Shown here: positions 1 through 63,187 of the stretch, one piece after another
How positions within the stretch are numbered: position 1 is the first letter of the stretch
Layout of the letters: every line of letters starts with the position of its first letter
Notes under the pieces: model-generated
What the model was told of the DNA's origin: nothing
Seen by the model: only the letters and a program-made list of their open reading frames with translations
Databases searched by the model: none
Translations under genes and position numbers: made by a program
Source of the DNA: an uncultured Acidobacteriaceae bacterium
Lineage (GTDB): Bacteria > Acidobacteriota > Terriglobia > Terriglobales > Acidobacteriaceae
Length of the DNA: 64,000 bases
Assembly (NCBI GenBank): GCA_963837245.1
Contig: CAWIMR010000029.1
Location: 347,537-411,536, forward strand
Direction: 5' to 3'

Positions 1-57
1 AGTTTCCTGCTCGTCCGCCAGTTGGGTGGCAGCAGCGTTTTGCTTGGTCTCGGGCAT
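1..57 (-). CDS. hypothetical protein, 5' end only (MPETKQNAAATQLADEQET...), runs off the window
   Basis: ATG at 57-55 on minus strand preceded by GAGGG Shine-Dalgarno; frame stays open to window edge; too short for a homology call. Confidence 0.25.
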   Translation of the reverse strand, partial: MPETKQNAAATQLADEQET

Positions 58-196
58 GAGAGTTGGCCCTCAGTAGTAGAGATAATTCAAGTATCAGCCG
101 GTCGCTGAGATGCCGCTATGACGTGCGTCACAAATTGCAGGGCAGTTTCAAGGTTGGAGCTTCGAGGTAGCGGACCACGAAAACTGAAACTTGAAA

Positions 197-529
197 CTAT
201 TTTCGCCGCGAACTCCAGAAAGAACTCAGGCCGAAATAGGCGAAGATCAGGGCAAACGCGCCTGCCAGCACGACCTTTCCTGATCCCGAGGCGCCGGTCT
301 GATAGCGGTGATACTGGCGAATGGCCGCACCGCCGCCAACCACGGCGAGAAACAAGAAGAGCAAGCCGGTCACTTCCAGCCATAGCACGTGCAGGACGCG
401 TGCGATGCTGTGAAACGTGACGGTACCCGCTCTGTAAAAGGCGCGGACCCAGCGATTTTCGCCGCTTTTCCTTCCCGCGACGCGGAGAAATGCCCGGCCC
501 TGAGTACCAAAACCGCGGGATGACACCAT
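197..529 (-). CDS. hypothetical small membrane protein (two predicted TM helices)
   Basis: 110-aa ORF with two hydrophobic stretches (LLFLFLAVVGGGAAI, VVLAGAFALIFAYFGL); the overlapping 222-aa minus ORF 87-755 is Arg-rich and not protein-like. Confidence 0.3.
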   Translation of the reverse strand: MVSSRGFGTQGRAFLRVAGRKSGENRWVRAFYRAGTVTFHSIARVLHVLWLEVTGLLFLFLAVVGGGAAIRQYHRYQTGASGSGKVVLAGAFALIFAYFGLSSFWSSRRK

Positions 530-757
530 CAGCCTCGTCCGCCCTGCAGTTGGCGGTAGAAAGCGCTATTCTAGCAGCCAGCTTTCGTGCCTGCGGACGT
601 TTGACCAGTTTCGGTCGCGTAACAAAACTTTCACCTGCCGTTTGCATCAAAAGTATTGCGCCGACCGGCGAAAGAGTTAAAGTGCTTCGAGGCGGTTTCG
701 CGTGTTCGCTCGGGGCCCTCCGTTCGTTCACTACGGGACAGCAAGCAGGTGGCATTT

Positions 758-1039
758 ATGGACAATCGACTGAAGGGCCTGATGAAGGAATTGGGAGAAG
801 CGATTAACAGCTCGCTTTCCGATTCTGACGAAATTGCCGAGGTCATCTCCCGAATTAAGGCGGGCGGGTACGACGTGTTTCTGGTGCTGGAGGCGACGAT
901 AGGCCTTAACCAGCGCGATGGGGACGCGGTCGAGAGAAGCCCAATCAAGACGCCGCGATCCTCCGGCGATTTCCGCATTACCTCACAGGATATGAAGTTC
1001 CTGAAGTCCCTCCGCATCCGAGTTGACGACGGGAAGTAG
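758..1039 (+). CDS. hypothetical protein (93 aa, acidic/amphipathic)
   Basis: ATG at 758 with AGGTGG Shine-Dalgarno 6 nt upstream; protein-like composition (MDNRLKGLMKELGEAINSSLSDSDEIAEVISRIKAGGYDVFLVLEAT...). Confidence 0.45.
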   Translation: MDNRLKGLMKELGEAINSSLSDSDEIAEVISRIKAGGYDVFLVLEATIGLNQRDGDAVERSPIKTPRSSGDFRITSQDMKFLKSLRIRVDDGK

Positions 1040-1192
1040 AGTTACCTCTACATAACCCAGCCGTGGGCGGGCAGTGTGCTAACATTCCGACTTCGCTTGC
1101 GGGTTGGCATGCGCCAGCACGGCGCGATCAGCCCTCCGGGGAACGAGCTTACAACCCTTGCCGGGGAAATTCCGTAGTCAGGAAATCGCCTG

Positions 1193-2446
1193 ATGAGACA
1201 AACTCTCGGAGTCTTACTGGCTGGAGGAGCGGGAGAACGTCTTTATCCGCTCACTCGCGACCGCGCCAAGCCGGCCGTTACCTTCGGCGGCATCTATCGC
1301 ATCATCGACATCACGCTTTCCAACTGCATCAACTCCGATCTGCGCAAGGTTTACATTCTGACGCAGTACAAAGCGCTTTCGCTGAACCGGCACATCCGCG
1401 AGGGCTGGGGCAATATCGTGGGCCGCGAACTGGGTGAGTTCATTGAGATCCTGCCGCCCATGAAGCGCGTCAGCGAAAACTGGTATATGGGCACCGCCGA
1501 CGCCGTGTATCAGAACATCTACTCCATTGGCTCGGAGCAGCCGAAGTATGTGCTGATCCTGTCGGGCGATCACATCTACAAAATGAATTACGACCTTATG
1601 CTGCGGCAGCATAAGGATTCGGGTGCAGACGTCACCATCGCGACCATTCTGATTGATCCGGCTGAAACCCGGCAATTTGGCGTGATTGACGTTGACCACA
1701 CCGGCCGGGTTGTTGGCTTCGAGGAGAAGCCGGAACAAACCGAGCTACGTTCGCCCTACAACCCCAGCATGGTGTCGGCTTCGATGGGCGTTTACATATT
1801 CAACACCGACGTGCTCATTCCGGTCTTGCTGAAGGACGCCGAGGACCCGTCCTCGCGCCACGACTTCGGGCACAACATCCTGCCCCGCATGGTGGACGAT
1901 TACAAGGTGTACTCGTTCAACTTCATCGACGAGAACCGCAAGGAAGCGCTGTACTGGCGCGATGTGGGCACGCTGGAAGCCTACTACGAGGCCAACACCG
2001 ACCTGGTGTCGGTCGCCCCGGTATTTAACCTTTACGATGAGGCCTGGCCGATCCGCACTCACATGCGGCAGTATCCGCCGGCCAAGTTCGTCTTCAACGA
2101 TCCGGCTCGCACCGGACAGGCGCACGATTCCATCGTTTCCATGGGCTGCATCATATCCGGCGGCTCGGTGCGCAACAGCGTGCTGTCGCCCGACGTGCGG
2201 GTGAACTCCTACTCCGAGATTGACAGCAGCATACTGTTCACTCACGTGAACATCGGCCGGCATTGTCGCATCCGCAAGGCCATCATCGACCGCGATGTTG
2301 ACATTCCCGAGGGGACCGTCATCGGCTATGACACCGAGGCCGACCGCGCCAAGTACCACGTGACCGATAGCGGAATTACGGTGGTCACGCGCGATTACTC
2401 GCTGTTTGAAAATCCCGTCGCAGTGGATTTCTTTACTTCGGAATAG
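1193..2446 (+). CDS. glgC: glucose-1-phosphate adenylyltransferase
   Basis: LLAGGAGERLYPLTRDRAKPAV..FGGIYRIIDITLSNCINS..ILTQYKALSLNRHIREGW matches the GlgC N-terminal signature; length 417 aa. Confidence 0.9.
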   Translation: MRQTLGVLLAGGAGERLYPLTRDRAKPAVTFGGIYRIIDITLSNCINSDLRKVYILTQYKALSLNRHIREGWGNIVGRELGEFIEILPPMKRVSENWYMGTADAVYQNIYSIGSEQPKYVLILSGDHIYKMNYDLMLRQHKDSGADVTIATILIDPAETRQFGVIDVDHTGRVVGFEEKPEQTELRSPYNPSMVSASMGVYIFNTDVLIPVLLKDAEDPSSRHDFGHNILPRMVDDYKVYSFNFIDENRKEALYWRDVGTLEAYYEANTDLVSVAPVFNLYDEAWPIRTHMRQYPPAKFVFNDPARTGQAHDSIVSMGCIISGGSVRNSVLSPDVRVNSYSEIDSSILFTHVNIGRHCRIRKAIIDRDVDIPEGTVIGYDTEADRAKYHVTDSGITVVTRDYSLFENPVAVDFFTSE

Positions 2447-2469
2447 TTGCATTTACCAAGGCAACACAG

Positions 2470-2495
2470 AGGCGCGGGGGAATCTGCGCCTTTTG
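2470..2495 (+). terminator. intrinsic terminator candidate downstream of glgC
   Basis: AGGCGC-gggggaatct-GCGCCT hairpin followed by TTTT. Confidence 0.4.
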
Positions 2496-2525
2496 CGTTG
2501 GGCAAGGCAGGGAACGGGGGGTGCA

Positions 2526-3926
2526 TCACTGCCGTTTCGCTGCCTTCTTCGCCGGCACGGACTTGGCGGCGCGAACTTTGCCGGTGCGAATCGCGCGTCT
2601 CAGCTGTTCCCAGTCCTTCACCGTCTGGTTTGCGTAAGTAACGCCGAAGATGGCCATCGCCTGGTCAAATTTGTCGTTGTTGCCAAGATAACCTGCGAAG
2701 GCGCAGGAATCGCCCGAGCGCGCGTGCCCCTTCGAGAGCAATTCGCCGCACATCTCCGCATACTCCACCAACCCTCTGCCTTTGAGGTCGTCTTCCGCGA
2801 TGCCTGCTTTGTGGTCGCGCAACTGGCGAACCACGTATTCGCAGTTCCCGATGGAGGTCCACCCCAGGAAGATGTCGGACTGCATCTGCATCGCGCGCCC
2901 ACCCTCGGCCGTGCGCTGCCCTTGATGTCTGGCAACCGGGCTGTGAGGCAGGTAGGGAGCATAAGCGGACCCGGGCTCTTCCTTGATCTGGATGAACAGT
3001 GGGTCCGAAATCGCCCCGCCGAACATAAGCAGCACGTAATCGCGGAGTCCCACGCTGCCCGTGCCCACCACGCGAAACGCGACGTCCTCGACCCGATATT
3101 GTGAAAAGAAGTGCGCCCGCTCGGGCAGAAGACTACGAGCGTAACGACGCAGTGATCCCACTGCCTCGTCGGCTTCCTTGGGCGAAACGTGATATTGCGT
3201 CGGCTTCTGGTCGCAAAACACGTGCTTGCCGTCCTGCAGGACGGTCAATTTTTGCAAATTGTGCAACGGCGTGGCCCGTTCCGCTTTGCGCAGGACGGAC
3301 CGGACAGGATCGATTTCCCGATAAATCTGAAAGCGTGCGAGGTCCACCCCCCGCATTTCGGAGAAGCGGTGCATCCAGACTCGATAGCTGCGAGCAAAAG
3401 CAAGCACGGCGCCCTTGCATTGTCTCTCGGAGTTGCCGGCCTCCCGCCCGGCAAGCACCAGGCTCGCCGACATCCGCTTCACGTCCCACTCCCAGGGCCC
3501 GATAAGGGTTTCGTCGAAGTCGTTGATGTCGAAGATCAGGCGCCCGTCAGGGGCCTCAAAAGCTCCCATGTTCTGTACGTGCGCGTCGCCGCAAATTTGG
3601 GCCATCAGGTCGGTGCGCGGCAACGGCGCCAGGTCGGCCGCCATCACCGGTACGGCCCCGCGAAAGAACCCAAATGGCGAAGTCGCCATATGCGCCCACT
3701 TAATAGGCAAGAGCGAGGGGATGCGTCCATGCTGCGAGGCCAGCAGAATGTCGACCACATCGTGCTTGCGGTCCTTGTGGTTCCAGTTTGCCTGGTCAAC
3801 CCGCCTGATCTTGTCGCGGCATAAGCGGCCGTGCTGGCGTCGCTCTTCGCGGGTCATCAACTTCGACTTCTGGGGGGACATAAGCTTGACGAGCATCATA
3901 CGCCCTAAGTAGCCGACCATAAACAA
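2526..3926 (-). CDS. DUF2252 family protein
   Basis: 466-aa ORF with a DUF2252-like conserved core (recognised from memory, no catalytic assignment). Confidence 0.7.
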   Translation of the reverse strand: MFMVGYLGRMMLVKLMSPQKSKLMTREERRQHGRLCRDKIRRVDQANWNHKDRKHDVVDILLASQHGRIPSLLPIKWAHMATSPFGFFRGAVPVMAADLAPLPRTDLMAQICGDAHVQNMGAFEAPDGRLIFDINDFDETLIGPWEWDVKRMSASLVLAGREAGNSERQCKGAVLAFARSYRVWMHRFSEMRGVDLARFQIYREIDPVRSVLRKAERATPLHNLQKLTVLQDGKHVFCDQKPTQYHVSPKEADEAVGSLRRYARSLLPERAHFFSQYRVEDVAFRVVGTGSVGLRDYVLLMFGGAISDPLFIQIKEEPGSAYAPYLPHSPVARHQGQRTAEGGRAMQMQSDIFLGWTSIGNCEYVVRQLRDHKAGIAEDDLKGRGLVEYAEMCGELLSKGHARSGDSCAFAGYLGNNDKFDQAMAIFGVTYANQTVKDWEQLRRAIRTGKVRAAKSVPAKKAAKRQ

Positions 3927-4468
3927 AATGTCTGCGAAGACAGCGAGTCAGTCTGATTTTCTTAAGCCGGCACCCGACCGGACGTCTATGCCGACCCCTC
4001 ATGCTTGGTGGCTGTCCCAATTCGGGAGCCCATAGTTACTTTCGTAAGTTGACTCGGCTGTTCTTAGGTGCTTTTCCCCGGCGCTGGGGCTAACCTGAAG
4101 AGTGGTGAACAGTAGTGCTCAAAAATAGGTTTCTGCATCATGCTGCTTGTTCAGAGTTATACCTTTGACCGACTTCGCGAGCAGGAAGCCGGTTCCTTGG
4201 CTGATGGGAAAGAGACCAAGCGCTTGAACCATAAGTCCAAGCAGCTCTATTACATGCGAATAAATCTTTACAAATCAGCTAGTTACGCCGGAAACACATC
4301 GCAAGTAACTGAAAACAAACATAGCCTTGTGGGGGTACCAGGGCGCGAAAAGTGGCGGGTTGAGCGTGATTAGAGACGTGGCAGCGCACGAACAGCCAAG
4401 ACCCGAGGTCGCGCCCCGGCCGCGATAAGCGCGATAAGATGGAAACAGATCCATACTCAGGAGCATCG

Positions 4469-5410
4469 ATGTCGGCCACCATTCTCGACGGAACGAAGAT
4501 CGCGGCGCAGATCAAAGCGGAGGTCGGGAACGAAGTCAAGGAGTTGACCGCTGCCGGCCTTCGTCCCGGCCTGGCGGTGGTGCTGGCCGGGCACAATCCG
4601 GCATCAGAGATTTATGTTCGCAACAAGGTGAAGAGCTGCGAGCAACTTGGCATCTACAGCGAGAAGCACACGCCGCCGGACACCGTGACGACCGCCGAAC
4701 TGCTGGCTTTGGTGGATGACCTCAATCGCCGCGACGAGATTGACGGCATTCTGGTGCAGCTGCCATTGCCGCTGCAAGTGGATGCGAAGAAAGTCCTGCT
4801 CGCCGTGTCTCCACAGAAGGACGTAGACGGATTTCATCCTATGAATGTCGGCTACCTCTCGACCCAGCGTCCCGGACTGGTTCCGTGCACTCCTGCCGGG
4901 ATCCTTGAGATTTTGAAGCGGAGCGGCATCGCCATCGCCGGCGCAGAAGCCGTGGTTGTTGGACGCAGCGACATCGTAGGCAAGCCGGTGGCCATGCTGC
5001 TGCTGAACAGCAACGCGACGGTCACGGTTTGCCATTCCAAAACGCGAGACCTGCCTGGAGTCTGCCGCCGCGCCGACATTCTCATCGCCGCCATTGGCAA
5101 GGCGGGCATGATTACGCCTGAATTCGTGAAGCCAGGAGCAACGGTCATCGATGTTGGCATGAATACCGTCACCGACGCCGCCGAGTTTCGCAGGTTCTTT
5201 GCGGGCAATGAGAAGCGCGAGCGCGACTTTGCGGCCAAAGGCTCGACCCTGATGGGCGACGTCGATCCCAGGGTGGCCGAGGTTGCCGGAGCGATGACAC
5301 CGGTGCCAGGCGGCGTTGGGCCATTGACCATCGCCATGTTGATGAGCAACACGGCGAAGGCAGCCAAACTGCGGCGCGGGCGTACGGTGGGAGCTGTGGC
5401 GGTTCGCTAG
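4469..5410 (+). CDS. folD: bifunctional 5,10-methylene-tetrahydrofolate dehydrogenase / cyclohydrolase
   Basis: ILDGTKIAAQIKAEV..PGLAVVLAGHNPASEIYVRNKVKSCEQLGI..DGILVQLPLP..PVPGGVGPLT signature; GGAG Shine-Dalgarno before ATG 4469. Confidence 0.9.
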   Translation: MSATILDGTKIAAQIKAEVGNEVKELTAAGLRPGLAVVLAGHNPASEIYVRNKVKSCEQLGIYSEKHTPPDTVTTAELLALVDDLNRRDEIDGILVQLPLPLQVDAKKVLLAVSPQKDVDGFHPMNVGYLSTQRPGLVPCTPAGILEILKRSGIAIAGAEAVVVGRSDIVGKPVAMLLLNSNATVTVCHSKTRDLPGVCRRADILIAAIGKAGMITPEFVKPGATVIDVGMNTVTDAAEFRRFFAGNEKRERDFAAKGSTLMGDVDPRVAEVAGAMTPVPGGVGPLTIAMLMSNTAKAAKLRRGRTVGAVAVR

Positions 5411-30873: not shown

Positions 30874-31049
30874 CCTGCCATAGCTCAGCCTTAAACTGGC
30901 ACACATCGGTGTCGAATCGAGATCAAACATGTGAGGCGTGGTTGGCGTGGACAGTCGTCAATAGGCGATGGTAAGCTTGCCCTCCGATTGCTCGCGTGCG
31001 AGGGCATTTCTCAAGAGCGAGACCCTCCGGCCGTGCGAGGATGACAACG

Positions 31050-32140
31050 ATGGCATCCGATCCGATCACCGCGCCCGTAGCGTTGAGCGCTACCAGGGGC
31101 ATCGCCCAACCGGTAACCGCAGCGCTGGCTCGCGCCGCCATCTTTCTCGTGGTGACTTTAAAACCCGGCCCCGACAATCGCACGGCCCTTCGATCGTTTT
31201 GTGGGGACCTGGCCGCGTTGTTGCGCGCCGTGGGATTTCGCGACCTTGAGGCGGGGCTCTCCTGTGTCCTGGGGTTTGGGTCGGAAGCCTGGGATCGGCT
31301 GTTCGGGCTGCTGCGGCCGGCAGAGCTACATCCATTCCGTGAGATTCGTGCCGGGGCCCGGCATGCCGTCTCTACACCGGGCGACTTGCTGTTTCACATC
31401 CGCGCGAAGCGCATGGACTTGTGCTTCGAGTTGGCGACGCAAATCATGGCACGCATCGGCGATGCGGTTTCGCCGGTCGACGAGGTGCATGGCTTCCGTT
31501 ACTTCGACGACCGCGACCTCCTCGGTTTTGTCGACGGAACGGAGAATCCGACTGGCCAGGCTGCGATCGACGCCGTGGTTGTCGGCGAGGAGGATGCCAT
31601 GTTCGCTGGCGGCAGCTACGTCATCGTGCAAAAGTATCTTCACGACCTTGCGGGATGGAACGGGCTGACCACCGAGGCGCAGGAACGAATCATTGGCCGC
31701 ACGAAACTATCTGACATCGAATTGGACGACTCCATCAAGCCAACCTCAGCCCACAACGCACTCACGACCATCGTCGAAGATGGGAAAGAGATCAAGATCC
31801 TGCGCGATAACATGCCCTTCGGGTCGGTTGCGCAAGGTGAGTTTGGCACCTATTTCATTGGCTATAGCCGGTCGCCCAGCACGATTGAGCAAATGCTGGA
31901 GAACATGTTTATTGGTCGCCCGCCGGGCAACTACGATCGGCTGCTCGATTTCAGTCGCGCCGTCACCGGAAACTTGTTTTTTGCGCCCTCCGCGACATTT
32001 CTGGAAGACGTAGCCGAGGATCAGCCTGCGGTTGTAGGGGTTTCCGCCCAAGCCAGCGGTCGAAGCTTCTTTGCCCGCTGCGCGAGAACGACGGTTCGCT
32101 GGGTATCGGTTCCCTTAAAGGAGACATTCCCCATGAATAA
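31050..32140 (+). CDS. Dyp-type (dye-decolorizing) haem peroxidase, encapsulin cargo with C-terminal targeting peptide; the linker region carries two apparent 1-nt indels
   Basis: Frame 0: FRYFDDRDLLGFVDGTENP (DyP GXXDG motif) ... NLFFAPSATFLEDV. The -1 frame ends ...RENDGSLGIGSLKGDIPHE* (canonical encapsulin cargo-loading peptide) with its TAA at 32138-32140. A Pro/Ala-rich linker GFPPKPAVEASLPAARE is readable in the third frame between them. GAGGA Shine-Dalgarno before ATG 31050. Confidence 0.85.
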
Positions 32141-32951
32141 TCTGCATCGAGAGCTTGCCCCCATTTCCGATGCCGCTTGGGCCCAGATCGAAGAGGAAAC
32201 ATCGCGCACGCTCAAGCGCCACCTCGCAGGACGGCACGTAGTGGACCTGCATGGGCCAGCGGGCGCAAGCCTCTCCGCCGTCGGTACGGGACATCTGCTG
32301 ACGATCCCGGCGCCGGGCGACGGCGTCGTCGCCGGACAGCGCGAACTAAAGGCGCTGGTCGAGATCCGTGTTCCATTCGAACTGGAGCGCCAGGCCATCG
32401 ATGACGTCGAGCGCGGCGCGAACGACTCAGACTGGCAGCCGGCGAAGGACGCCGCGCGCAAGCTCGCTTATGCCGAGGATGGCGCCATCTTCGATGGCTA
32501 TCCCGCCGCTGGAATCGTGGGCATTCGGCAAGGGACCAGCAATCCGGCGATGACCCTCCCCGGCGATGTGCGAGAGTACCCGGTAGCAATTGCCCAAGGC
32601 CTGAGCCAATTGCGGCTTGTCGGCGTCAATGGCCCCTATGCCGTGCTCCTCGATGCCAACGTTTACACTGCGCTGGCCGAGACCAGCGATCAAGGATATC
32701 CGGTACTGGAACATGTCAAACGGCTCGTCGACAACAAAATCATCTGGGCGCCCGCCATCCAGGGTGCTTTTGTGGTCACCACCCGTGGCGGCGATTTTGA
32801 CCTGCACATCGGCCAGGATGTCTCCATTGGCTATTTGAATCACACCGATGCCGCTGTCAGCCTCTACTTGCAGGAGACATTCACTTTCCTGATGCTCACG
32901 GCTGAGGCAGCCATCGCGCTGGCTCCGCCGGTGAAGTCGCAGAAGAACTGA
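32133..32951 (+). CDS. family 1 encapsulin nanocompartment shell protein (HK97-fold, linocin M18-like)
   Basis: MNNLHRELAPISDAAWAQIEEETSRTLKRHLAGRHVVDL...SNPAMTLPGD...GPYAVLLDANVYTALAETSDQGYPVLEHVKRLV..IIWAPAIQGAFVVTTRGGDFDLHIGQDVSIGY...YLQETFTF matches the M. tuberculosis Cfp29/Rv0798c-type encapsulin almost motif-for-motif. AAGGAG Shine-Dalgarno 8 nt upstream; the start overlaps the DyP stop (ATGAATAA). Confidence 0.9.
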   Translation: MNNLHRELAPISDAAWAQIEEETSRTLKRHLAGRHVVDLHGPAGASLSAVGTGHLLTIPAPGDGVVAGQRELKALVEIRVPFELERQAIDDVERGANDSDWQPAKDAARKLAYAEDGAIFDGYPAAGIVGIRQGTSNPAMTLPGDVREYPVAIAQGLSQLRLVGVNGPYAVLLDANVYTALAETSDQGYPVLEHVKRLVDNKIIWAPAIQGAFVVTTRGGDFDLHIGQDVSIGYLNHTDAAVSLYLQETFTFLMLTAEAAIALAPPVKSQKN

Positions 32952-33149: not shown

Positions 33150-36100
33150 TCAGAAGTTAACGCGGAACCCGAACTCCATGGCTCGGGGCGTATTGCCTTG
33201 GCCCGGCGAGGTACCCCAGGAACTCGGGCTGCTGGTGTCGAGGTAATCATTCCCCTGGGTGCCCCCGAAACCAGGATCGAAGAACACCACGTGGTTAAAG
33301 AGATTGAGAAACACGGCCTGCGCTTCAAAACTGACGCGTTCTGTAATCTTGAAGTTTTTCTTCAGGCTGAAATCCACGTTCCAGTACGGTAGCCCACGCA
33401 GGACGCCGATTCCCCCGTCGCGGGTGTCATAGCCAAGAATGGGCTGCCGAATTGAGTTGTACACGGCTGCTGGATCGGCCCAGATATTGACAGGCAGTGA
33501 GCCGCCCGTGCCGACACCATTCGCTGAGGTAACGTTGTAATGTACGCCACTGCTGGGGATCGGTCCTATTGGGATTGCATTTTCGGAGACTCCATTGCCG
33601 AAGAAGTTCACCGAATCGCCTTCGCCGAAGGCCTGCCCGCCACCGTTGACCGTGCCCAGAGTCATGGGCAAGCCACTGCCAGCGACGAAAATCGGCGCGA
33701 AAGTCCAGCCTCCCAGCAGGCGCCCCTTCCACCCCGCCTGTCCCTTGAAGAAGGCAGGCTGGTACACCATGAACAGGTTGTAAACCAGCGTGCGGTCAAA
33801 CCCCTGCAAGCCGTATTGCGTGTGCAGGTTAAACGGGTCGATCGTCGTATCCTCGCTAGTGGCCTGAACCAACGCGCCCGTACCCAGCGCCTTCGACCAG
33901 GTGAAGTTCGACTGCATGGTCAGGCCTTTCCAGTCTGACATCTTGACGGAGATGAAACCGGCGTTGTAATTGCCGTAGCCCAGGCTGGCGTTGACTCCAA
34001 CACCGCTGCTAAGCTGCCCATTGGCGCCGAACTGCCCACCCTGAATGGGAGTATTCAGCATGCTACGCGGGAAGTTGAACCCGCCGTTGTCCAGATCGCT
34101 CCACAGGCTCCACACGTTCTGGATGTCGAGGTTGCCGCTGCCATTAGCGGCGCCTTCTTTGAACGCCACTGCTGCGGTGCAGCTCGAGAACCCATTGCAA
34201 TACCCGGTGCCCGCCAAGGCCGTCTCAAAAAACGGCTGCGGCGTGACTGTCTGGTAACGAATTAGCGTTAGCAGCGCAATTGCTGCCGCGAAGCCCGTTG
34301 ATGCCGCCACAATATTGGAGCACCAGGTTGGCGTAGGCCTTGTCGAAGCGCTGGCCGCCCAGCGTCATCATGTAGGGCACGGAGTTGATGTTAATGGGCT
34401 GGTACTCGTGGGTGATGTGGCGCCCGATATAGCCGAGTTCCATGCTCACCTGGCGCGACAACTGGTGCTGAAACGAGAGGCTCCACGAGTCCACCACGTT
34501 GGGGCGGAAATTCGGGTCCAAAGCCTCACCCGCGCCAGCGGCGATGTCGTTAATACCAGGAAAGTCCGGTTGCGGAAGGGTCGGACTGGCCGGCGGCAAG
34601 GGCGCGTTTAAGCCATTGATGCCGACGCGGAAAGCCGTGGCTGGGTTCGAACCGGAAGAGCTGCCTGCGCAGGTACCATTGGCCAACGCCCCGATGCACT
34701 GTACCGGTTGGATCAGTCCAGTGCCCAACAGCGGCACCAGGACCAGGTCCACCCCATTCAACCGGCCGTAGATTCGACCGTAACCGCCCCGTATGACTGT
34801 GTTGCCGTCGCCCCACGGATCCCATGCGGCCGCAATTCGCGGACTCCATTCTCCGTAATAGGGATTGTAGGGGTATTTGGGGTGTCCCGCGACGTTATCA
34901 ATCAAGGAGAAACCAACCGTCGGGTTATAGACCTGTCCCTGTAAGGCTGCGCTCTCCCGCGAATTCAAGTAGTTCGTGACGCTGATGGGCTTGTCATTCG
35001 AGTCCACCAATATGACTTGCTTACCATTCGCCTCCACCGGCGGCATTTCCAGCGTCCATCCCAGACCGTAGGTCAGAGTGAACCTTGGATTGATGCGCCA
35101 CGTGTCGCTGAAGTACACGTTGTAATAAGGAATGGTGCTCTGGTCGTAGGCCGGCGTTAGCGGAGGATTCAGATTCAGCGCTTTCCCCGACCGGGTGTAG
35201 GCGATCTGCGCGATGGAGACGATACCCAACGTGGCGGCGTAGTCCCGACCCCAGTTCGCTGTGGGAACAAGCGGATTCCCGTTTGCATCGGATGGGACAT
35301 ATCCCGACAAGTTGATTCCGGCGCCGCTGGTCGTACCGAGCTGGTACACGGGGTAGTAGTTAATGCCACCGCCGTTATCGGTACGCTGATGATAGTTCCA
35401 GTTGTGCTGGTACTGACCGCCAAATTGCAGGGTATGCCTGCCTTTGAGCATGGTCACGTCATCCTTAAGCATCCAGTCGTGCCCATCCCAGAAGCGAGTT
35501 CGTGTCCCCTGCGTGTTCACGTTATAGGGGGCGAGGACGTTGGTCCCATTTTCACCCCACGGTTCCAGCGCGCCTCCCAAACCAGGGATCTGCACCGGGT
35601 CTCCTTCAGTGTTCCAGGACCAATAGTTGCGCAGATAGCTATAGTGTAAGTCGTTCGTCGTATTGGTACTGATGTTGGTAGTCAGCCCTGCCACCAGATA
35701 CCACGGCACCTGCGGGTTGTTAGAGACGGCGGCTGGGACACCCAGCTTGTCGCCTGGGAAAAAGCCCCCAATATCAATCTGCCGAGTGGTCACCGGAGTG
35801 AGATGGTAATACCGGTAACTCGACATGAAGTGCCACTTGTCGCCAAAATCGTGGTCCAGGCGAGCGACGCCGAAATTGTCGTCCTGCGGGGTCGACATGT
35901 TGGCTTTGAAGCCTAGAATGTTCGTACCGTCGCAACGGCTGAGGCCGCAGGTGGATTCATTCGACATCGGCATATACTTATTCACATCTGCTGCACTACA
36001 GGGTTTATTCCAATACCCAGCGGATCCCAATCCTTCAGGTTGTAGTTGACTCCATTGAAGGTGAGGATGCCGTTACGCATGTTTTCCGATGGAACCGGCC

Positions 36101-37148
36101 TTTCTATGGTTTGCGAATACGGCCAGCGGAAGCCTTGATACATGCCATAAAAATAAGTTTTGCCGCCCAGCATCTTGGGGAGGATGGGTCCGCCAGCTCC
36201 TGCTCCAAACCGGCTGTAGTGCCAGTTCGGTAGTGGCGTACCGGTAAAGTTGTTGTCCCAAGTATTTGCCGAGAAGTTGTTATCCAGATAGTACTCAAAG
36301 ACCGTGCCGTGCCAGACGTTGGTGCCGCGCTTGGTCACGACCTGCACCTGCGCTCCCGACGAGCTGTTGAAATCGGCGCCTTGCAGGGCAGTGCTGACCT
36401 TGAATTCCTCGACGCTGTCAATCGGAGTCGGCATCACTCCAGTCGGGCCTGCAGCTCCGGTATAAGCCTGATTGGCAATGCCACCGGTGGGGTCGTGGGC
36501 GGCGTAGCTGGTGGTGTACACGCTCATACTGCCATCCATGTCGTTGGTGTTGTTGCCACCATCGAGCATGAAGGTACTCTGGTCCACCACGGTACCCGCC
36601 ACGCTGCCATCAGGGCTGACGCCGGGCTGCAATTCTACGAAGGTACTGACGTCGCGGTCCTGGCTGGGCAGGGATTGCAGCGCCAGTCCGGTGACGGTAT
36701 TGCCGATGGTAGCGTTCGTAGTCTGTAATTCCACCCCAGTGGCCGCCACCTCAATGGTCTGGGTTGCCGTGCCCACTTCCAGCGTGGCGTTAGCAGTGGT
36801 AGGCGTACCAATCTTTACCTGCTGGGCGCCAATCCTGAATTTCTTGAAACCTGACTTGGTCACCGTGATGTCGTAAGTGCTCGGCGGCACGTTGACAAAG
36901 GTATAGAAACCAGCACTGTTGCTGGTGGCTGTGCGCGTCTCTTGCGTGGCCGTGTCGGTCAGGGTGATCGTCGCATTCGGAACCACCGCGCCAGTCTTGT
37001 CGCTAACCGTCCCGGCAACAGTGCCGCCGGATGCGACTTGTGTCCAAGCCGGTACTGCGCCGACCCAAAGCAGGATAGCGGCCATAAGGCCAAAGGTTGC
37101 AAGGAACGAACGTGACGGGAAAGGGTCCCGAAGCTCAGGTCGTGTCAT
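33150..37148 (-). pseudogene. TonB-dependent-receptor-like outer-membrane protein with N-terminal carboxypeptidase-regulatory-like domain (paralog 2), split into three ORFs by two frameshifts
   Basis: ORFs 35982-37205, 34225-36030 and 33150-34310 are collinear pieces homologous to the intact 39435-43031 paralog. They carry a signal peptide, a CarbopepD_reg-like N-terminus (TVAGTVSD..GAVVPNATITLT) and the C-terminal ...PRAMEFGFRVNF* beta-barrel terminus. GGAGGG Shine-Dalgarno before ATG 37148. Confidence 0.7.
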
Positions 37149-37559
37149 TTCTCCCTCCAGAGGTTGACTTGCGTCTAACGTCTGACTTCGCGGATTGGCA
37201 AACAACTATCTAGGCCGCTTGAAAAGAGAGATCCTAACGACAGAAGGCCGAACCGAATTGGGTCTTGAAATGCACCAGCACCTGCCTCTTCGCCCAGAGA
37301 AAACGACAGAGATCTCGGCACCAGCTAAGCGCTCCGAGAACCACCCAAATCCCAAATCTTAAGATCGGAGCGCGGCAAGAATTGGGCACAATGACAGCAT
37401 TTGAGTATCCAAATGTGAAAGCCGGTTAACGTTATGAAAATATTGTAGATTTCCAGAACTGGATTCCAATAAGGTTACGAAATCCTGAATATTTCACGGA
37501 AGCGACATCCAATTTCCCATAGATGACGCCGCGCGGTTGAGGCGGATCGGGCAATCGGC

Positions 37560-39434: not shown

Positions 39435-42400
39435 TTAGAACGCAATGCGCATGCCGAACTCCATGGCGCGTGGCGCGCCCAGGTTGAAAACACCGGTACC
39501 GACCCCTACGCGGTTGGTAATGCGATCGGCGGCAGTGGTGCCATTGATCGTGCCCGCGCTGCCCGTCAAGGCACCGGTCAGGGCGTTCGGAGGCAGGTCA
39601 AAGTTGGCGAAATTGAAGAGGTTGTAGAAACCCACACCGGGCTGGAGTTGAATGACATGGCTCTTCAACTCAACGTTGTAGGTCCAGTTTAACTTCAGGT
39701 CAAAGTCTCGAAGCGAACCCAGGTTCACCTGGCCGTTGGGAGCGGGTTGCAGGGTGCAGTTCGGACTGTTGATGCCCATTCCCTGAACACATGGCGCCAC
39801 TCCACCAAGTTGCTGGAGCTGGCTGACGGTGAACAGGCCATTGTTGACCAGCGTCATTCCGGCTGGCGTTGGCTGGTTACCTTGGGTGGCATTGTAGCTC
39901 GCCAATAACGTATTAAGCGTACTGGCATGGACGGACCTTCCGTAGGCTCCATTGAGCGTTCCCGGCAGCGGATCCCCCGTTGTACCGTCACCCGTGAAAT
40001 CGGTCTGGAATATCTGTCCCGCTCCAGATCCAGGTACGATGATCGGCAGCGGCAACGACGAATTGAAGTGGCCGATGAAGGAGACCTGGAAGTGCCACGG
40101 CAGGCTACCGACAACGCCGAAGGAAAACTGCTGGGGGCGATCGAGCAGCGAGGGCCCAAAATACCGGTTCGGGTTTTCATTGTCTAGCGCAGGAATCACG
40201 AAGTCCTGATCACTGTTGGCGACCGCACCCGGCGCGGTAGCACTGCCACCACCCGAGTTCTTGAAGGAAGAGTAGGCGTAGGAGATCTGTGCGTTCAAGC
40301 CGGGGAGCCACTTAGCCACGTTGTGTTTTTGATAGGTGAGTTTCATCTCCACCGCGTTGTATTTCGAGATTCCTGAGGGAACCATGAATGTCATCGCGGG
40401 CGCTGCCGGATTTAGGCCTCCAAAGGCGCAGCCTCCCGGTGGGCAAGATCCCGTTCCACCCAGATCACCTTGGGAATCCAAGCCATTCTGGGCAAAACTG
40501 CTGATGGTCGCGCCGTTCGCAATGGCACAATTGATCGCGGCCGCACTGGAGCCTCCCGCGCAACCGAACGAGGCAGTGGTGTTTGCGATCGCCGTCTGAG
40601 CGTTCGCCTTATTGAAGTACTTCACGTCGCCGGTGTGGTTCAAATCCACGCCAAGCAGCAGGCCCGTGGTGACGTTGCGGACATAGTCCACGCTGCCCAC
40701 GACGCCAGGCGCAAATTCATGCTGTATGCCAACATTGATCTGGGTGGAACGTGGTGTCTTATAGTTGGGAGCAAACAGGCCGATCGGAAAGTTTATGCCC
40801 CCGTTGAGGTAACCCGAAACGATGTAGTTGGGGTTGGGATTATTAAGGTTGAACGGGTTGGCCGCCTGGTATTGCTGCTGCAAGGTTGCAATCGCCGAAC
40901 CCACTTGGCCCAGGGAAAGCTGACTGCCATCAGGAGCGAGACCGCAATCCTCAGGCGTGACGGTTGGCTGACCGGAGCCCGGAAGCTGAGTTATGGTTCC
41001 GAAAACGCAGGGTGTCGGGGTCTGCAGGAACGCGCCATTCTGAAGCCGCAATGGGCGATCAAAAAGGACATTGTTAAAGATCACGTTCTCGTAATACAGG
41101 CCAATGCCCGCACGAACCACGTTTTTGCCGGTTTTCCATGGATCCCAAGCGATTCCCAGGTTGGGGCCGAAATTCAGGTTCGGATTGGGAATTGCATTGC
41201 CCAGATTAGGAAAGTCCGAAACCACATTGTTCAGCGCGGGTATGCCCGGCAGATCGCTGTCCGTGCGGCCGGTGTCGCGTACATAGCGCAGGCCGAGATT
41301 CACGGTGAAATTAGAAAACATCTTCCAAGTGTCAGCGATATACGCTCCCAAGCGATTATCCGGTCCCAGTCCGCCAGCCGGGAAGCCAAACGCCGACTGG
41401 GTTGTGGAGAAACCCTGGCCGTTGCCAAGGATCACGATATCAACAGGATAATTAAGAGGGTTCCCAGCGCCGCCGGGATAGGGCCCGGCAGCCGCGAAAG
41501 CTTGGTCTCCTGAATAGTTGGTAACTACTTGCGGCGCCAGCGAAAAGAACTTCGCAAAGCCACCGCCTTGTATGTGGTTATAGTCCACGCCATAGCGCAG
41601 GATGTGCTTACCAACGGTCTTTGAGCCGTCGTACTTGATTTGGTGGTCACTCTGGGGCGTGCTTTGCGGCGCCAGAAGGTTGGGCCCAGTAGAGGGGCCG
41701 TTATTGACGTCGATGTTGAGATAAAGGCCGTTGCCGGGGAAGTTCGCCAGCGGCAGCGTGCTGCCGATGACCGCGTCCGCGATTTCGTTCTGGAACTTCA
41801 GATAGCTGAAGCGAATGCTGTGGGTCCAGGCGCCGGTGACGAAATCGGCGCCACCTACGTAATTGCGGACGTAGTTTTTCGACTGATACACCTGAAGGCT
41901 GTCGGAAAAGAAGGTGCCCTCCGCCTTGATTTGCGAGTAGCTGTAGCGGAAGAACAGCTTGATGTTGTGGGGTGCGACGAAATCCACGCGCCCCAGAGCA
42001 TTGGGGTTTGAGAAGGGCGAGTTGAAGCCCCCTGAGAAACTATCAAAGGGTGGGGCATACTGGACGGGCCCGAACAGGCTCTGGTTGGTCCCGTCGCCTT
42101 CCGCGAAGTAGAACAACTTGTCCTTGATAAAGGCTCCGCCCACGCTGCCACCGTATTGGTTGCGGTGATAATTGGGATCGTCGAAACCCGCAGGCTTTGG
42201 CAAGGACGCATCCACGCTGCTGGTGCGGTAATATTCGTAGCCCTCGCCGTGGATGGTGTTGGTACCTGACTTGGTGGACACGTTGACCACGCCTGACGAA
42301 CTCAGATCGTTGGATAAATCCATTGTGGATTGCGCGATCTGGAATTCCTGAATGGCGCTGGCCGAGATGTTGCCCGTGGTCGTGCCGACGGTTTCGTCGG

Positions 42401-43031
42401 AGATGTCCGTGCCATCCACCTGGATACGCGCGGTGCGGCCGAAACGGCCGCCAAACGAAATGGACTGGTAGCCAATCTTGGTTGGGTCGAAGTTGGTTCC
42501 ATCCTGAATCTGCACGCCCGGCTCAAGCTGCGCCAGATCGAGGAAATTACGGCCATTGACGGGTAAATTCTCAATCTGGGTCGCGGTCAGAACACCCTGC
42601 ACCGACGTCTGTTCGGTGTTTACGCCAACCGCCGCCGCCTCGACATTGACGGTCGTGGACTCCGAGCCCACTTGCAACTTGAAATTGACAGCGCTGTTGT
42701 TGCCGATTTGGACCAGCACACTGGTCTCGGAACGGGAAAACCCTTTTGCCTGCACGCTGACCGTGTAGGTGCCCGCCGTGATCGAGCCGGAGTTATAGGA
42801 CCCGCTCGAGTTGGTGGTCACGTTGGTCGTGACGCCGGTGTCGGTCCGGGTGATGGCCACCTTGGCCCCCGACACGGCAGCCCCGCTGGGATCGGTTACC
42901 GTGCCATTGATGTTCCCCGTGGATATGGTGGATTGGGCATTCAGGGTGGAGGGCAGCAACAGGAGCAGAGTTGCCAGCGCAGCAATTAGACAAAGGATCG
43001 CGCGCCGTTCGTGGGCGTTCAAACGCGTCAT
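39435..43031 (-). CDS. TonB-dependent-receptor-like outer-membrane protein with N-terminal carboxypeptidase-regulatory-like domain (paralog 1, intact, ~1198 aa)
   Basis: Signal peptide MTRLNAHERRAILCLIAALATLLLLLPSTLNA; INGTVTDPSGAAVSGAKVAITRTDTG..; C-terminus ..GAPRAMEFGMRIAF*; GAGAGGA Shine-Dalgarno. The ORF track start at 43109 is an upstream in-frame extension. Confidence 0.8.
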   Translation of the reverse strand: MTRLNAHERRAILCLIAALATLLLLLPSTLNAQSTISTGNINGTVTDPSGAAVSGAKVAITRTDTGVTTNVTTNSSGSYNSGSITAGTYTVSVQAKGFSRSETSVLVQIGNNSAVNFKLQVGSESTTVNVEAAAVGVNTEQTSVQGVLTATQIENLPVNGRNFLDLAQLEPGVQIQDGTNFDPTKIGYQSISFGGRFGRTARIQVDGTDISDETVGTTTGNISASAIQEFQIAQSTMDLSNDLSSSGVVNVSTKSGTNTIHGEGYEYYRTSSVDASLPKPAGFDDPNYHRNQYGGSVGGAFIKDKLFYFAEGDGTNQSLFGPVQYAPPFDSFSGGFNSPFSNPNALGRVDFVAPHNIKLFFRYSYSQIKAEGTFFSDSLQVYQSKNYVRNYVGGADFVTGAWTHSIRFSYLKFQNEIADAVIGSTLPLANFPGNGLYLNIDVNNGPSTGPNLLAPQSTPQSDHQIKYDGSKTVGKHILRYGVDYNHIQGGGFAKFFSLAPQVVTNYSGDQAFAAAGPYPGGAGNPLNYPVDIVILGNGQGFSTTQSAFGFPAGGLGPDNRLGAYIADTWKMFSNFTVNLGLRYVRDTGRTDSDLPGIPALNNVVSDFPNLGNAIPNPNLNFGPNLGIAWDPWKTGKNVVRAGIGLYYENVIFNNVLFDRPLRLQNGAFLQTPTPCVFGTITQLPGSGQPTVTPEDCGLAPDGSQLSLGQVGSAIATLQQQYQAANPFNLNNPNPNYIVSGYLNGGINFPIGLFAPNYKTPRSTQINVGIQHEFAPGVVGSVDYVRNVTTGLLLGVDLNHTGDVKYFNKANAQTAIANTTASFGCAGGSSAAAINCAIANGATISSFAQNGLDSQGDLGGTGSCPPGGCAFGGLNPAAPAMTFMVPSGISKYNAVEMKLTYQKHNVAKWLPGLNAQISYAYSSFKNSGGGSATAPGAVANSDQDFVIPALDNENPNRYFGPSLLDRPQQFSFGVVGSLPWHFQVSFIGHFNSSLPLPIIVPGSGAGQIFQTDFTGDGTTGDPLPGTLNGAYGRSVHASTLNTLLASYNATQGNQPTPAGMTLVNNGLFTVSQLQQLGGVAPCVQGMGINSPNCTLQPAPNGQVNLGSLRDFDLKLNWTYNVELKSHVIQLQPGVGFYNLFNFANFDLPPNALTGALTGSAGTINGTTAADRITNRVGVGTGVFNLGAPRAMEFGMRIAF

Positions 43032-43605
43032 ACGCTTTTCCTCTCTAGGGATGTCGTCAACCTGCCAGATCGCCCACCAGAAGACGTGCGTCTTCTTCCC
43101 GCCGGTCAACCTTGTGAATGTGCGCTGTCAACTTTGACAACGAATGCCGCAGCCCGATAGCTGCGGATCGCAACTGCCGGTTTCCAAATTCGGTGGTTAC
43201 AGTGACGAAAATAGAAGGTGGAGCATGTGCCGAGGAAAGACTGGTTCCACTGGCAAACCAGACGGAAGTGGCATACTGCCGGACTGTGTAGCGTAGCCAA
43301 GTAACTTGGCACAACCGACCCCACATCGGTGGCGCTTATTGCCGACTTGGGGTGCTTCTATGCAATTGGTTAGCCAAACCAGAGAGGAAGTAACTCTCTG
43401 GAAACACTAAAGCCGAGGGGCGGATTGCTGGATTAATGGTACGAAATTCAGAATGCTGAGATTTATGAAATCCTGTTTTTCATAGCCGAGGTGGATATCG
43501 ACAACGACAGCGGCAGCTGAACTCCTTGGACTTGGGGAACCGGCCTTCGGTCGGCAAGAGCTAAAGTAACCTGTTAAACATGCCAAGGAGGTTATAATAA
43601 CTTCG

Positions 43606-60744: not shown

Positions 60745-60750
60745 CCCATC

Positions 60751-63187
60751 ATGCCGCAATTCTGCGATGTGGCCGTGCCGGTCCCGCTCGACGCCACCTT
60801 CACCTACCGCCTTCCCGAGAACACGCCCGAGCCCTGCGTCGGCGGCCGCGTCATTGTGCCTTTCCGCGAGAAGCGGCTGAGCGGCATCGTCACCGAGCTG
60901 CACGATCGTGAACCCAAATTCCAGACCCGCCGCCTGAGCCAGGTACTGGACTCCACCCCCGCGCTAACAACCGAACTCATGCAACTGGGCCGCTGGATCG
61001 CCCAGTACTACATCGCCCCCATCGGCGAAGTCTTTCGCACCATGCTGCCGCTGTCCGCGGAGTTTCGGCGGGTCATCGGCTACCACATCACCGACAAAGG
61101 GATTGCTGCACTGCATGCTGCATCCACGGTCGGGTCTTCGTTGCGGTCGCAGAAAGAGCCCGAACACCAGATGCTGGAATATGCCGCATTAAACCGTCTT
61201 GCGGACGGCGAAGTCGTGCGCGAAGCCGCGCTGCGTTCGGCCTCTGGTGCAACAAAATCGGTGCTGCAGGCCATGCTGCGAAAGAAGTGGATTGCCCGCG
61301 ACGACCTCAGCGACGTACGCGATGCCAGCCGCACCGTGCAGATGGCGACGTTAAAGAACGCTGAAGGCAAGCTCAACGCCAACCAGCAGAAGATCGTGAA
61401 CTACCTGGGCAGCCAGGAAAACCGGCGCGCCCCGGTTGAAGCGGTTCGCCAACTGGACGTCCCGCGCACCACGCTGCAAACGCTGGTACGCCGCAGCATC
61501 GTCGAGCTGACCTACGAGCCGGCTACCTTCCACGTTTCCGGACTGAAGCCGCGCAAGCTGGAGTTCCTCTTCACGCCCGCGCAGAGACAAGCACTCGATA
61601 CGATCATCGGCGCCGTCGATGAGCGGAAGTTCCTGCCCATGCTGCTGCACGGCGTTACCGGCTCGGGCAAGACCGCCGTGTACCTGTCGGCGATGCAGGC
61701 GCTACTGGCCAAGGGCCGCTCGGCAATCCTTCTGGTTCCGGAGATCGGCCTCACCCCCGCCATGGCTGCTGATCTGCACCAGATCTTCGGCGATGAGGTT
61801 GCCATCCTCCATTCCGCGCTGAGCGATGACGAGCGTGCCGAGCAATGGAAGCGCATCCGCAATGGCGAGTCCCACATTGTGGTAGGCACACGCTCCGCCA
61901 TCTTCGCGCCCGTGCCCGATCTCGCGCTCATCGTGGTGGATGAGGAGCACGACCACTCCTACAAGCAGGAGGAAATGCCGCGCTACCACGCCCGCGATGT
62001 GGCCGTGATGCGCGCCAAAATGTGCAACGCCGCCGTTGTGCTCGGGTCGGCCACGCCGTCGCTGGAAACGTATTACAACGCGGTGCAGGGCAAGTATCGT
62101 CTGCTGGAGCTGCCGGAGCGCATCGAGAAGCGCCCGCTGCCCGAGGTCGAAATCCTCGACATGCGCGAGGAATTCCAGCGTACCCGCAAGGACGAACCGC
62201 TCTCCCGCAAGCTGGTTGCGGAAATCGGCGAGCGCCTGGCGCGCAACGAGCAGGTCATGGTGCTGCTGAACCGGCGCGGCTATTCCGCGTTCGTGCTCTG
62301 CCGCGAGTGCGGCGAGAGCGTGCAATGCAAGAACTGCGCCATCGCCATGACCTACCACAAGCGCGAGCACCGGCTCATGTGCCACTACTGCGGCTTCGCA
62401 GCGCCCCGCGCCCAAGACCTGCCCCCAGTGCGGCAGCGAGTACGTGCAGTATCTCGGCACCGGATCGGAAAAGCTGGAGCACATTCTGCACGGGCTGTTC
62501 CCCCAGGCGCGCATTGCCCGGCTCGACCGCGACACCGTCCACGGGCGCGACGACTTTGAGCGCATGTTGACCGCGCTGCACGCCGGCGAAATCGACCTGC
62601 TGGTAGGCACGCAGATGATCGCCAAGGGGCATGACGTGGCCAACGTCACGCTGGTTGGCGTGGTCGGCTCCGACGCCGCGCTCAGCTTTCCCGACTTCCG
62701 CGCCGCCGAGCGCACCTTCCAGTTGCTCACCCAGGTCGCGGGACGCGCCGGCCGCGGCGACACGCCCGGCAAAGTCGTGCTGCAAACATTTTTTCCCGAC
62801 CACTACGCCATCCAGTTCGCCGCCGCGCACGACTACCACGGCTTCTACGAGAAGGAAGTGCGCTTCCGCAGTTGGATGCACTACCCGCCATTCGACGCCG
62901 TAAGCAACGTGCTGGTGCGCAGCCATAAACTTGACGAAGCGCTGGCCTGGTCGGGCATCCTGGGCAAGTGGTTCCACGGCACGCAGCTCGACGGCGTGCG
63001 CGTGATGGGACCGGCGGCGGCGGCCATCGTGCGGCTCAAGACCGAATACCGCTACCACTTTCTGCTGAAGTCGCGCAGCCGCGAGCGCATGAATGCCGTG
63101 CTGCGCTCCATGCTCGAACATGCGGCGGAGCAAAAGATCCCGCGCAACAACGTGGTGGTGGATGTGGATGCCCTGTCGCTGATTTAG
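60751..63187 (+). CDS. priA: primosomal protein N' (replication restart helicase), with a +1 frameshift near 62400-62415
   Basis: GVTGSGKT, DEEH helicase motifs in ORF 60751-62559. The Cys-rich region CRECGESVQCKNCAIAMTYH..CHYCGF continues as ..KTCPQCGSEYVQYLGTGSEKLE.. in ORF 62444-63187 after a C-run. Confidence 0.85.

Follow-up and report, generated by a model that had tools for sequence, protein, structure and literature searches.

A DyP-type peroxidase and the Linocin_M18 shell protein of an encapsulin are joined in one open reading frame in the stretch of DNA analyzed here (64,000 nucleotides, called the window in the following), and we consider it likely that the two extra bases which create this fusion are indel errors in an assembly that is probably a Nanopore-only MAG. 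The locus is most probably an ordinary DyP–encapsulin operon of soil Acidobacteriota of a kind already well known, and the feature that had been flagged is most probably not biological. The open reading frame spans positions 30996-32951 of the plus strand and encodes 651 aa according to the ORF list and the three-frame translation, with the Pfam domains Dyp_perox_N/C at residues 38-334 and Linocin_M18 at residues 380-630. PF04261 and PF20628 match the DyP part over their full length, and the encapsulin part matches positions 1-253 of the 253 positions of PF04454 (Linocin_M18; predicted HK97 fold) with E=3.9e-95. In the sequence as given cargo and shell domains therefore share a single reading frame, as they do in the natural cargo-fusion encapsulins. 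We took the ATG at 31050 (MASDP...) as the start of the DyP gene in agreement with the N-termini of the orthologues; further in-frame starts are present upstream at 31041 (ATG) and 30996 (GTG). The features of the locus are the following (database proteins carry the prefix P, loci the prefix L):

31050..32049, plus strand: DyP-type peroxidase body in frame 0, with full-length Pfam matches to Dyp_perox_N and Dyp_perox_C

32047..32051, plus strand: first 1-nt insertion (gCCCAAg; extra C or A), shifting frame 0 to +1, placed by DNA alignment and codon bookkeeping

32050..32076, plus strand: middle of the Pro/Ala-rich linker, (K)PAVEASLP, orthologous in frame +1 only and identical in P0001, P0006, P0008, P0023 and P0049

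32074..32080, plus strand: second 1-nt insertion (CCCGCTG), shifting frame +1 to +2, one base more than in L081 in the DNA alignment

32081..32140, plus strand: end of the linker and putative cargo targeting peptide RENDGSLGIGSLKGDIPHE with its TAA in frame +2, identical to the C-termini of the orthologues and following the GSLxIGSLK consensus (PMC10960027)

32117..32124, plus strand: Shine-Dalgarno-like sequence AAAGGAGA, presumably serving the encapsulin gene, inside the targeting-peptide codons (LKGD) and kept in the aligned loci

32133..32951, plus strand: Family 1 encapsulin shell gene, 272 aa, matching Linocin_M18 1-253/253, its ATG overlapping the DyP stop codon in ATGAATAA

The original prediction had described the C-terminus of the DyP as being spread over three frames and fused to the encapsulin reading frame, and both the three-frame translation of window positions 31900-32160 and the orthologues confirm this. 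Over this interval frame 0 reads ..FLEDVAEDQPAVVGVSAQASGRSFFARCARTTVRWVSVPLKETFPMNNLHRE.. (DyP tail ..AEDQPAVVGVSAQASGRSFFARCARTTVRWVSVPLKETFPMNNL...) and frame +1 reads GFPPKPAVEASLPAARERRFAGYRFP between two stop codons (DyP tail GFPPKPAVEASLPAARE...). Frame +2 of the tail reads ..LRENDGSLGIGSLKGDIPHE and ends with a TAA at 32138-32140, which overlaps the encapsulin ATG at 32133. The stretches with orthologous counterparts are frame 0 through ..AVVGVSA, then PAVEASLP in frame +1 and finally RENDGSLGIGSLKGDIPHE in frame +2, and the latter two together are identical to the C-termini of orthologues which are 85-90% identical (e.g., P0001 and P0049). The 19-residue tail matches the orthologues at 19/19 positions even though the DyP body is in another frame. 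To judge by these comparisons, the match of the DyP tail to its orthologues across three frames is not due to chance. The targeting motif DGSLGIGSLKG is complete; counted from the DyP body it lies in frame +2, and it comes into frame once two single bases are removed.

For the orthologue search we used the reconstructed DyP as the query. This search returned thousands of matches, and the figures given here are those of the best 120, which are 79-90% identical with a query coverage of 97-100%. The modal length of these homologues is 362 aa, found exactly in 57 of the best 120, and P0001 can serve as an example of their C-terminus (..AEDKPAVAVASAEPAVEASLPARENDGSLGIGSLKGDIPHE). With 99% of the repaired query aligned, the DyP body of the window shares 85-91% identity with orthologues of 362 aa.

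The two changes, both 1-nt insertions relative to the orthologues, were placed by aligning the DNA of the window with that of L081 and L082, the closest loci. L081 and L082 have CCG-CCGAGCC opposite the CCGCCCAAGCC of the window, and the CCCGCTGCGCG of the window holds one extra base compared with these loci. The first indel had been placed at the GGGG run 32037-32040, with a linker starting there as GFPP. This position is off by ~10 nt. The GGGG run lies within good frame-0 sequence, and since the orthologues keep frame 0 homologous through ..AVVGVSA, that is up to 32048 (AVAVASA in the orthologues vs AVVGVSA in the window), the first extra base has to be sought at 32047-32051 and the GFPP start is a spurious reading. 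The second indel is confined by codon bookkeeping to 32074-32080, a few bases upstream of where it had been put, and does not have to lie in a homopolymer. Deletion of 32049 or 32051 restores ..VSA(K/Q)PAVEAS.., and deletion of any one base in 32076-32080 gives ..SLP(L/V/A)RENDGSL.. and a 362-aa product. Whichever base is removed at each of the two sites, the result is always a 362-aa DyP which is colinear with P0001 and P0049 and free of other lesions. The repaired DyP ends with ..PAVEASLPxRENDGSLGIGSLKGDIPHE and thus has the GSLxIGSLK peptide as well as the conserved overlap of stop and start codons, ATGAATAA.

In DyPs associated with encapsulins, a C-terminal peptide with the consensus GSLxIGSLK is attached by a flexible Gly/Pro-rich linker and binds to the lumenal face of the T=1 shell of 60 subunits, each shell taking up ~12 copies of DyP in the form of two hexamers (PMC10960027). 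Compared at the sequence level, the repaired gene fits this published scheme exactly. As in the Family 1 two-gene operons of Klebsiella pneumoniae (KpDyP_Enc), Brevibacterium linens and Mycobacterium, the DyP gene lies directly upstream of the Linocin_M18 gene, and the Pro/Ala linker, the GSLGIGSLKG tail, the shell protein of ~270 aa and the overlap of the DyP stop with the shell start are all shared. The one difference is that two single-base insertions in the given sequence put the peptide into another frame than the DyP body, and without these two bases the locus does not differ from many Acidobacteriota orthologues which are 85-91% identical. An icosahedral shell enclosing DyP hexamers would be expected here by homology (PMC10960027).

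The original prediction had proposed a comparison with orthologous loci in related genomes as a check, and its outcome supports an assembly error. A scan of species-representative genomes yielded 80 related loci, 77-85% identical at the protein level. Nearly all of them are from Acidobacteriota (Terriglobia) MAGs, many of these being 'MFD...bin' assemblies with Flye-style contig_N names. In 77/80 loci the DyP is intact: it ends in frame with ..GSL.IGSLKG.... and a stop codon, the encapsulin gene follows directly downstream on the same strand as in the window, and the stop codon of the DyP and the start codon of the encapsulin overlap in (C)ATGAATAA. This cATGAATAA junction is found in nearly all of the 80 loci. 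The fusion architecture is shared by 0/80 loci. The three exceptions with a broken DyP (L048, L078 and L079) all come from 'MFD...bin' MAGs with contig_N names; L048 has a frameshift in the linker and L078 has one immediately before the stop codon. At L079 (positions 4001-4966, MFD05512.bin.2.37) the DyP stops early after ..DDEPATG and there is no encapsulin match downstream; this could reflect a rearrangement, a true loss or a misassembly. The neighboring genes could not be compared with those of the closest loci, L081 and L082, because synteny around the operon is not conserved there.

Two further observations were made with the related loci. The 8-nt overlap ATGAATAA, in which the end of the DyP (..HE and stop) lies over the start of the encapsulin (MNN..), and the Shine-Dalgarno-like AAAGGAGA in the LKGD codons are almost invariant in ~77 loci, and the targeting-peptide codons appear to be constrained twice, by coding and by translation initiation. 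Loci which are 79-84% identical were also found in MAGs labeled Alphaproteobacteria, Xanthobacteraceae or Methylocella (L015, L016, L022, L052, L056, L065, L066, L068 and L078-L080). This points either to horizontal transfer of the operon between phyla or to unreliable bins or labels.

It had been pointed out that frame 0 happens to stay open into the encapsulin ATG. The frame is indeed open, but there is nothing remarkable about this: of 79 related loci, 70% have an encapsulin frame without stop codons over 25 codons or more before its ATG, and the median over the loci is 40 codons. Since the encapsulin frame is free of stop codons in most loci, a shift anywhere in the linker whose net effect leads into that frame produces a 'fusion' ORF. 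The open frame 0 is thus a built-in property of DyP–encapsulin loci and not a sign of design.

We also searched the remainder of the window for split genes by GC3-guided ORF mapping and Pfam. In total, single-base frameshifts occur at five sites in the 64-kb window. The three genes concerned are otherwise well conserved and free of further signs of decay, and the ~30 other ORFs checked in the window are intact. Three of these frameshifts lie beyond the DyP gene, two of them in the adjacent outer-membrane protein (OMP) gene and one in priA:

33150..37205, minus strand: TonB-dependent-like outer-membrane gene with CarboxypepD_reg and OMP_b-brl_4 (Pfam), in three ORFs, directly downstream of the encapsulin gene

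60745..63187, plus strand: priA replication-restart helicase gene, in two ORFs owing to one inserted base near 62392-62398 in the Cys-rich zinc-binding region

The three ORFs of the OMP gene cover positions 1-88, 123-588 and 592-835 of the Pfam profile. The gene lacks one base near 35983-35986, where the Trp codon TGG is given as TG, and has one base too many near 34247-34258; a tblastn comparison shows that the full-length homologues P0158 and P0160 switch frame at both sites. The window also holds an intact OMP paralogue of 1230 aa at 39438-43127. We tried to place the OMP frameshifts with this paralogue, but it was too divergent and the placement rests on the database homologues. In priA the Pfam domains are divided between two ORFs, the second of which aligns to residues 482-724 of PriA in the PDB. 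Removal of one base restores CHYCGSQRPAPKTCPQCGS, parallel to the motif DSQRPIPRQCPSCGS of K. pneumoniae PriA. Four of the five frameshifts fall within 4 kb (32.0-36.0 kb). The motif GCWGC overlaps 2/5 of the frameshift site intervals (32077-32081 and 62398-62402) and lies 4 nt from a third (~35990). By chance ~2-5% of positions would be expected to overlap the motif, and ~2-8% when the third site is counted in; this might hint at a methylation-related basecalling error, the test being post hoc and weak.

The same species occurs in an independent dataset, to judge by the JGI metagenome contig L083 (3300086547, Ga0683293_0044338), which is 99.1% identical to window positions 1-3114 with 26 substitutions and one indel and ends short of the DyP locus. 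The indel is a GGG (L083 ~1520) opposite the GGGG of the window at 709-712, and because it lies within a doubtful 5' ORF extension it says nothing firm on the error rate. A metagenome scan for a same-species copy with the exact 23-mer between the two indels gave no match, and a scan with a wobble-degenerate LEDVAEDQPAV pattern gave 8 matches, 0 of them DyP loci. Neither scan thus yielded an independent same-species copy of the locus.

With regard to the provenance of the contig, the OMP fragment of the window is 100% identical to P0157, which is encoded on an NCBI/ENA contig, and the closest DyP loci, L081 and L082, belong to the ERZ2503xxxx contig_N series. From its relatives and its database provenance it is probable that the contig stems from a Nanopore-only MAG. 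The MFD MAGs are Nanopore-only Flye assemblies which were polished once with Medaka to reduce indel errors, and their authors note effects of sequencing errors at lower coverage (PMC12313526). The window resembles such Nanopore-only metagenome artefacts in that isolated single-base indels, several per tens of kb, break or fuse intact conserved genes, and artefacts of the same class are seen in sister MAGs (P0121-P0148, L048, L078 and L093). It departs from the usual pattern in that the indels here are in very short runs and not in long homopolymers, the platform of this contig being deduced from its relatives and records.

A search with the whole fusion ORF retrieved 28 database proteins (P0121-P0148) which have DyP and Linocin domains together. 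All 28 are singleton clusters, each on a single contig, and their breakpoints differ. Most of them read the targeting peptide out of frame (..RVRSASDLSKETYHMNNLHRE; e.g., ..VRSASVPSKET..MNNLHRE), some have lost a base near the stop codon (..GSLKGDPGMNNL), and some have an additional upstream frameshift in the DyP body or deletions. Two of the 28 fusions were traced, and both are on Flye-style or MFD-type MAG contigs (ERZ25039525 contig_105469 and GCA_963730745.1 CAVSTA010000025). On the latter contig the neighboring genes are shattered: an aldehyde dehydrogenase gene is broken into five, and the genes for MoCoBD and CO-dehydrogenase flavoprotein are also split. The public 'DyP-Linocin_M18 fusion' entries (P0121-P0148; loci L092 and L093) thus look like frameshift artefacts. 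In a large encapsulin census the N-terminal fusions of Family 1 comprise only archaeal Flp and the dihaem cytochrome c of anammox bacteria, and a DyP fusion class is absent (PMC8346489).

The sequence of events which we favor would be as follows. The real locus would be a canonical Family 1 encapsulin operon, with a DyP of ~362 aa, a flexible Pro/Ala linker, a C-terminal GSLGIGSLKG and a stop codon overlapping the shell start (ATGAATAA). The extra bases at ~32047-32051 and 32074-32080 would be uncorrected single-base insertions in a long-read metagenome consensus. The native offset of +1 between the DyP and encapsulin frames would be brought to zero by the two +1 errors, so that the DyP body lands in the encapsulin frame, and with no stop in that frame across the targeting-peptide codons an artefactual 651-aa 'fusion' ORF would result. 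In the organism the peptide would dock DyP hexamers to the inner face of the 60-mer shell, as is known from published work on DyP encapsulins.

This explanation by assembly error is supported by the repair itself, which yields the modal length of 362 aa, a colinear C-terminus and a 19/19 tail without further lesions. It is also supported by the three further frameshifts in the window, by the 77/80 intact related loci and by the 28 database fusions all being singletons. On the other side, the indels are in runs of 2-3 nt or in non-repeat sequence and not in long homopolymers. Nanopore errors concentrate in long homopolymers. The clustering of frameshifts at 32.0-36.0 kb could moreover equally mark a locus under relaxed selection. 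The original ranking, with homopolymer miscalls first and a real fusion last, is upheld by the other frameshifts, the intact relatives and the singleton fusions, whereas the term 'homopolymer' was too specific, because the indels are in runs of 2-3 nt or in non-repeat sequence.

It is conceivable, though we regard it as unlikely, that both insertions are real mutations carried by the organism or a sub-population, in which case the DyP would lack the peptide, peptide-mediated loading would be lost and the operon would be decaying. In favor of this are the sequence itself as it stands, the two breaks in the adjacent OMP gene, which could mark a locally dispensable region, and the broken DyP C-termini in a few related MAGs (L048, L078 and L079). 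However, these other broken loci all come from the MFD long-read MAG collection. Two independent indels would have occurred 27 nt apart without a single degenerative substitution; the out-of-frame peptide is still 19/19 and the body still 85-91% identical with full Pfam coverage, whereas neutral decay would yield many more substitutions than indels. In addition priA is frameshifted in the same window, which is improbable for a free-living soil bacterium. A programmed ribosomal frameshift, in which the ribosome would shift by +1 twice in succession and so regain the targeting peptide, would account for the orthologous reading being followable through three frames, and this is its sole support. 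We regard it as extremely improbable: two +1 events within 30 nt would be required, a conserved slippery or stall motif is missing, the tail is in one frame in 77/80 orthologous loci and the other broken copies break elsewhere. Programmed +1 frameshifting was rejected, as the shift site is not conserved at the same position in the orthologues.

There is also only a very slight probability that the reading frame represents a genuine N-terminal cargo fusion, in which a DyP–linker–encapsulin protein of 633-651 aa and free 272-aa encapsulin, made from its own Shine-Dalgarno sequence and ATG, co-assemble with a few DyP tethered inside. The ORF is open, the internal AAAGGAGA and ATG are intact and natural Family 1 N-terminal fusions do exist (PMC8346489). 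As in these natural fusions (archaeal Flp, e.g., that of Pyrococcus furiosus, and the anammox dihaem cytochrome c), the cargo would be N-terminal to the shell protein and on the lumenal side. But the natural fusions show conservation across lineages, possess linkers of their own and form T=3 shells. The present arrangement occurs on this contig alone, and its connector of 28 residues (ASGRSFFARCARTTVRWVSVPLKETFP) is no evolved linker but an out-of-frame reading of the native linker and peptide. The breakpoints are shared by no related genome and the database fusions are singletons with heterogeneous junctions, so that the fusion is neither inherited nor conserved, and the census contains no DyP class (PMC8346489). 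Furthermore DyP hexamers are too large for a stoichiometric fusion in a T=1 shell; as the shell holds ~12 DyP per 60-mer (PMC10960027), such a fusion could not fit. Assembly errors thus remain by far the most probable origin of the two extra bases.

Gene callers will give this locus as a 70-kDa 'DyP-encapsulin fusion', and at least 28 such entries are already public. In mining for new cargo-fusion encapsulins, such entries should be regarded as artefacts of frameshifts as long as they lack confirmation by reads. Were the two bases to be confirmed, the locus would represent cargo targeting lost very recently or a cargo fusion formed by accident, and would be modestly interesting for the origins of fusion encapsulins. 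Should both insertions be real, there is a small chance that a little DyP–encapsulin fusion is made alongside free encapsulin from the internal start, tethering DyP inside the shell without the peptide. If true, cargo-fusion encapsulins could evolve spontaneously from peptide-loaded cargo in one step, a route which would be open because the encapsulin frame is free of stop codons across the peptide codons in ~70% of the related loci.
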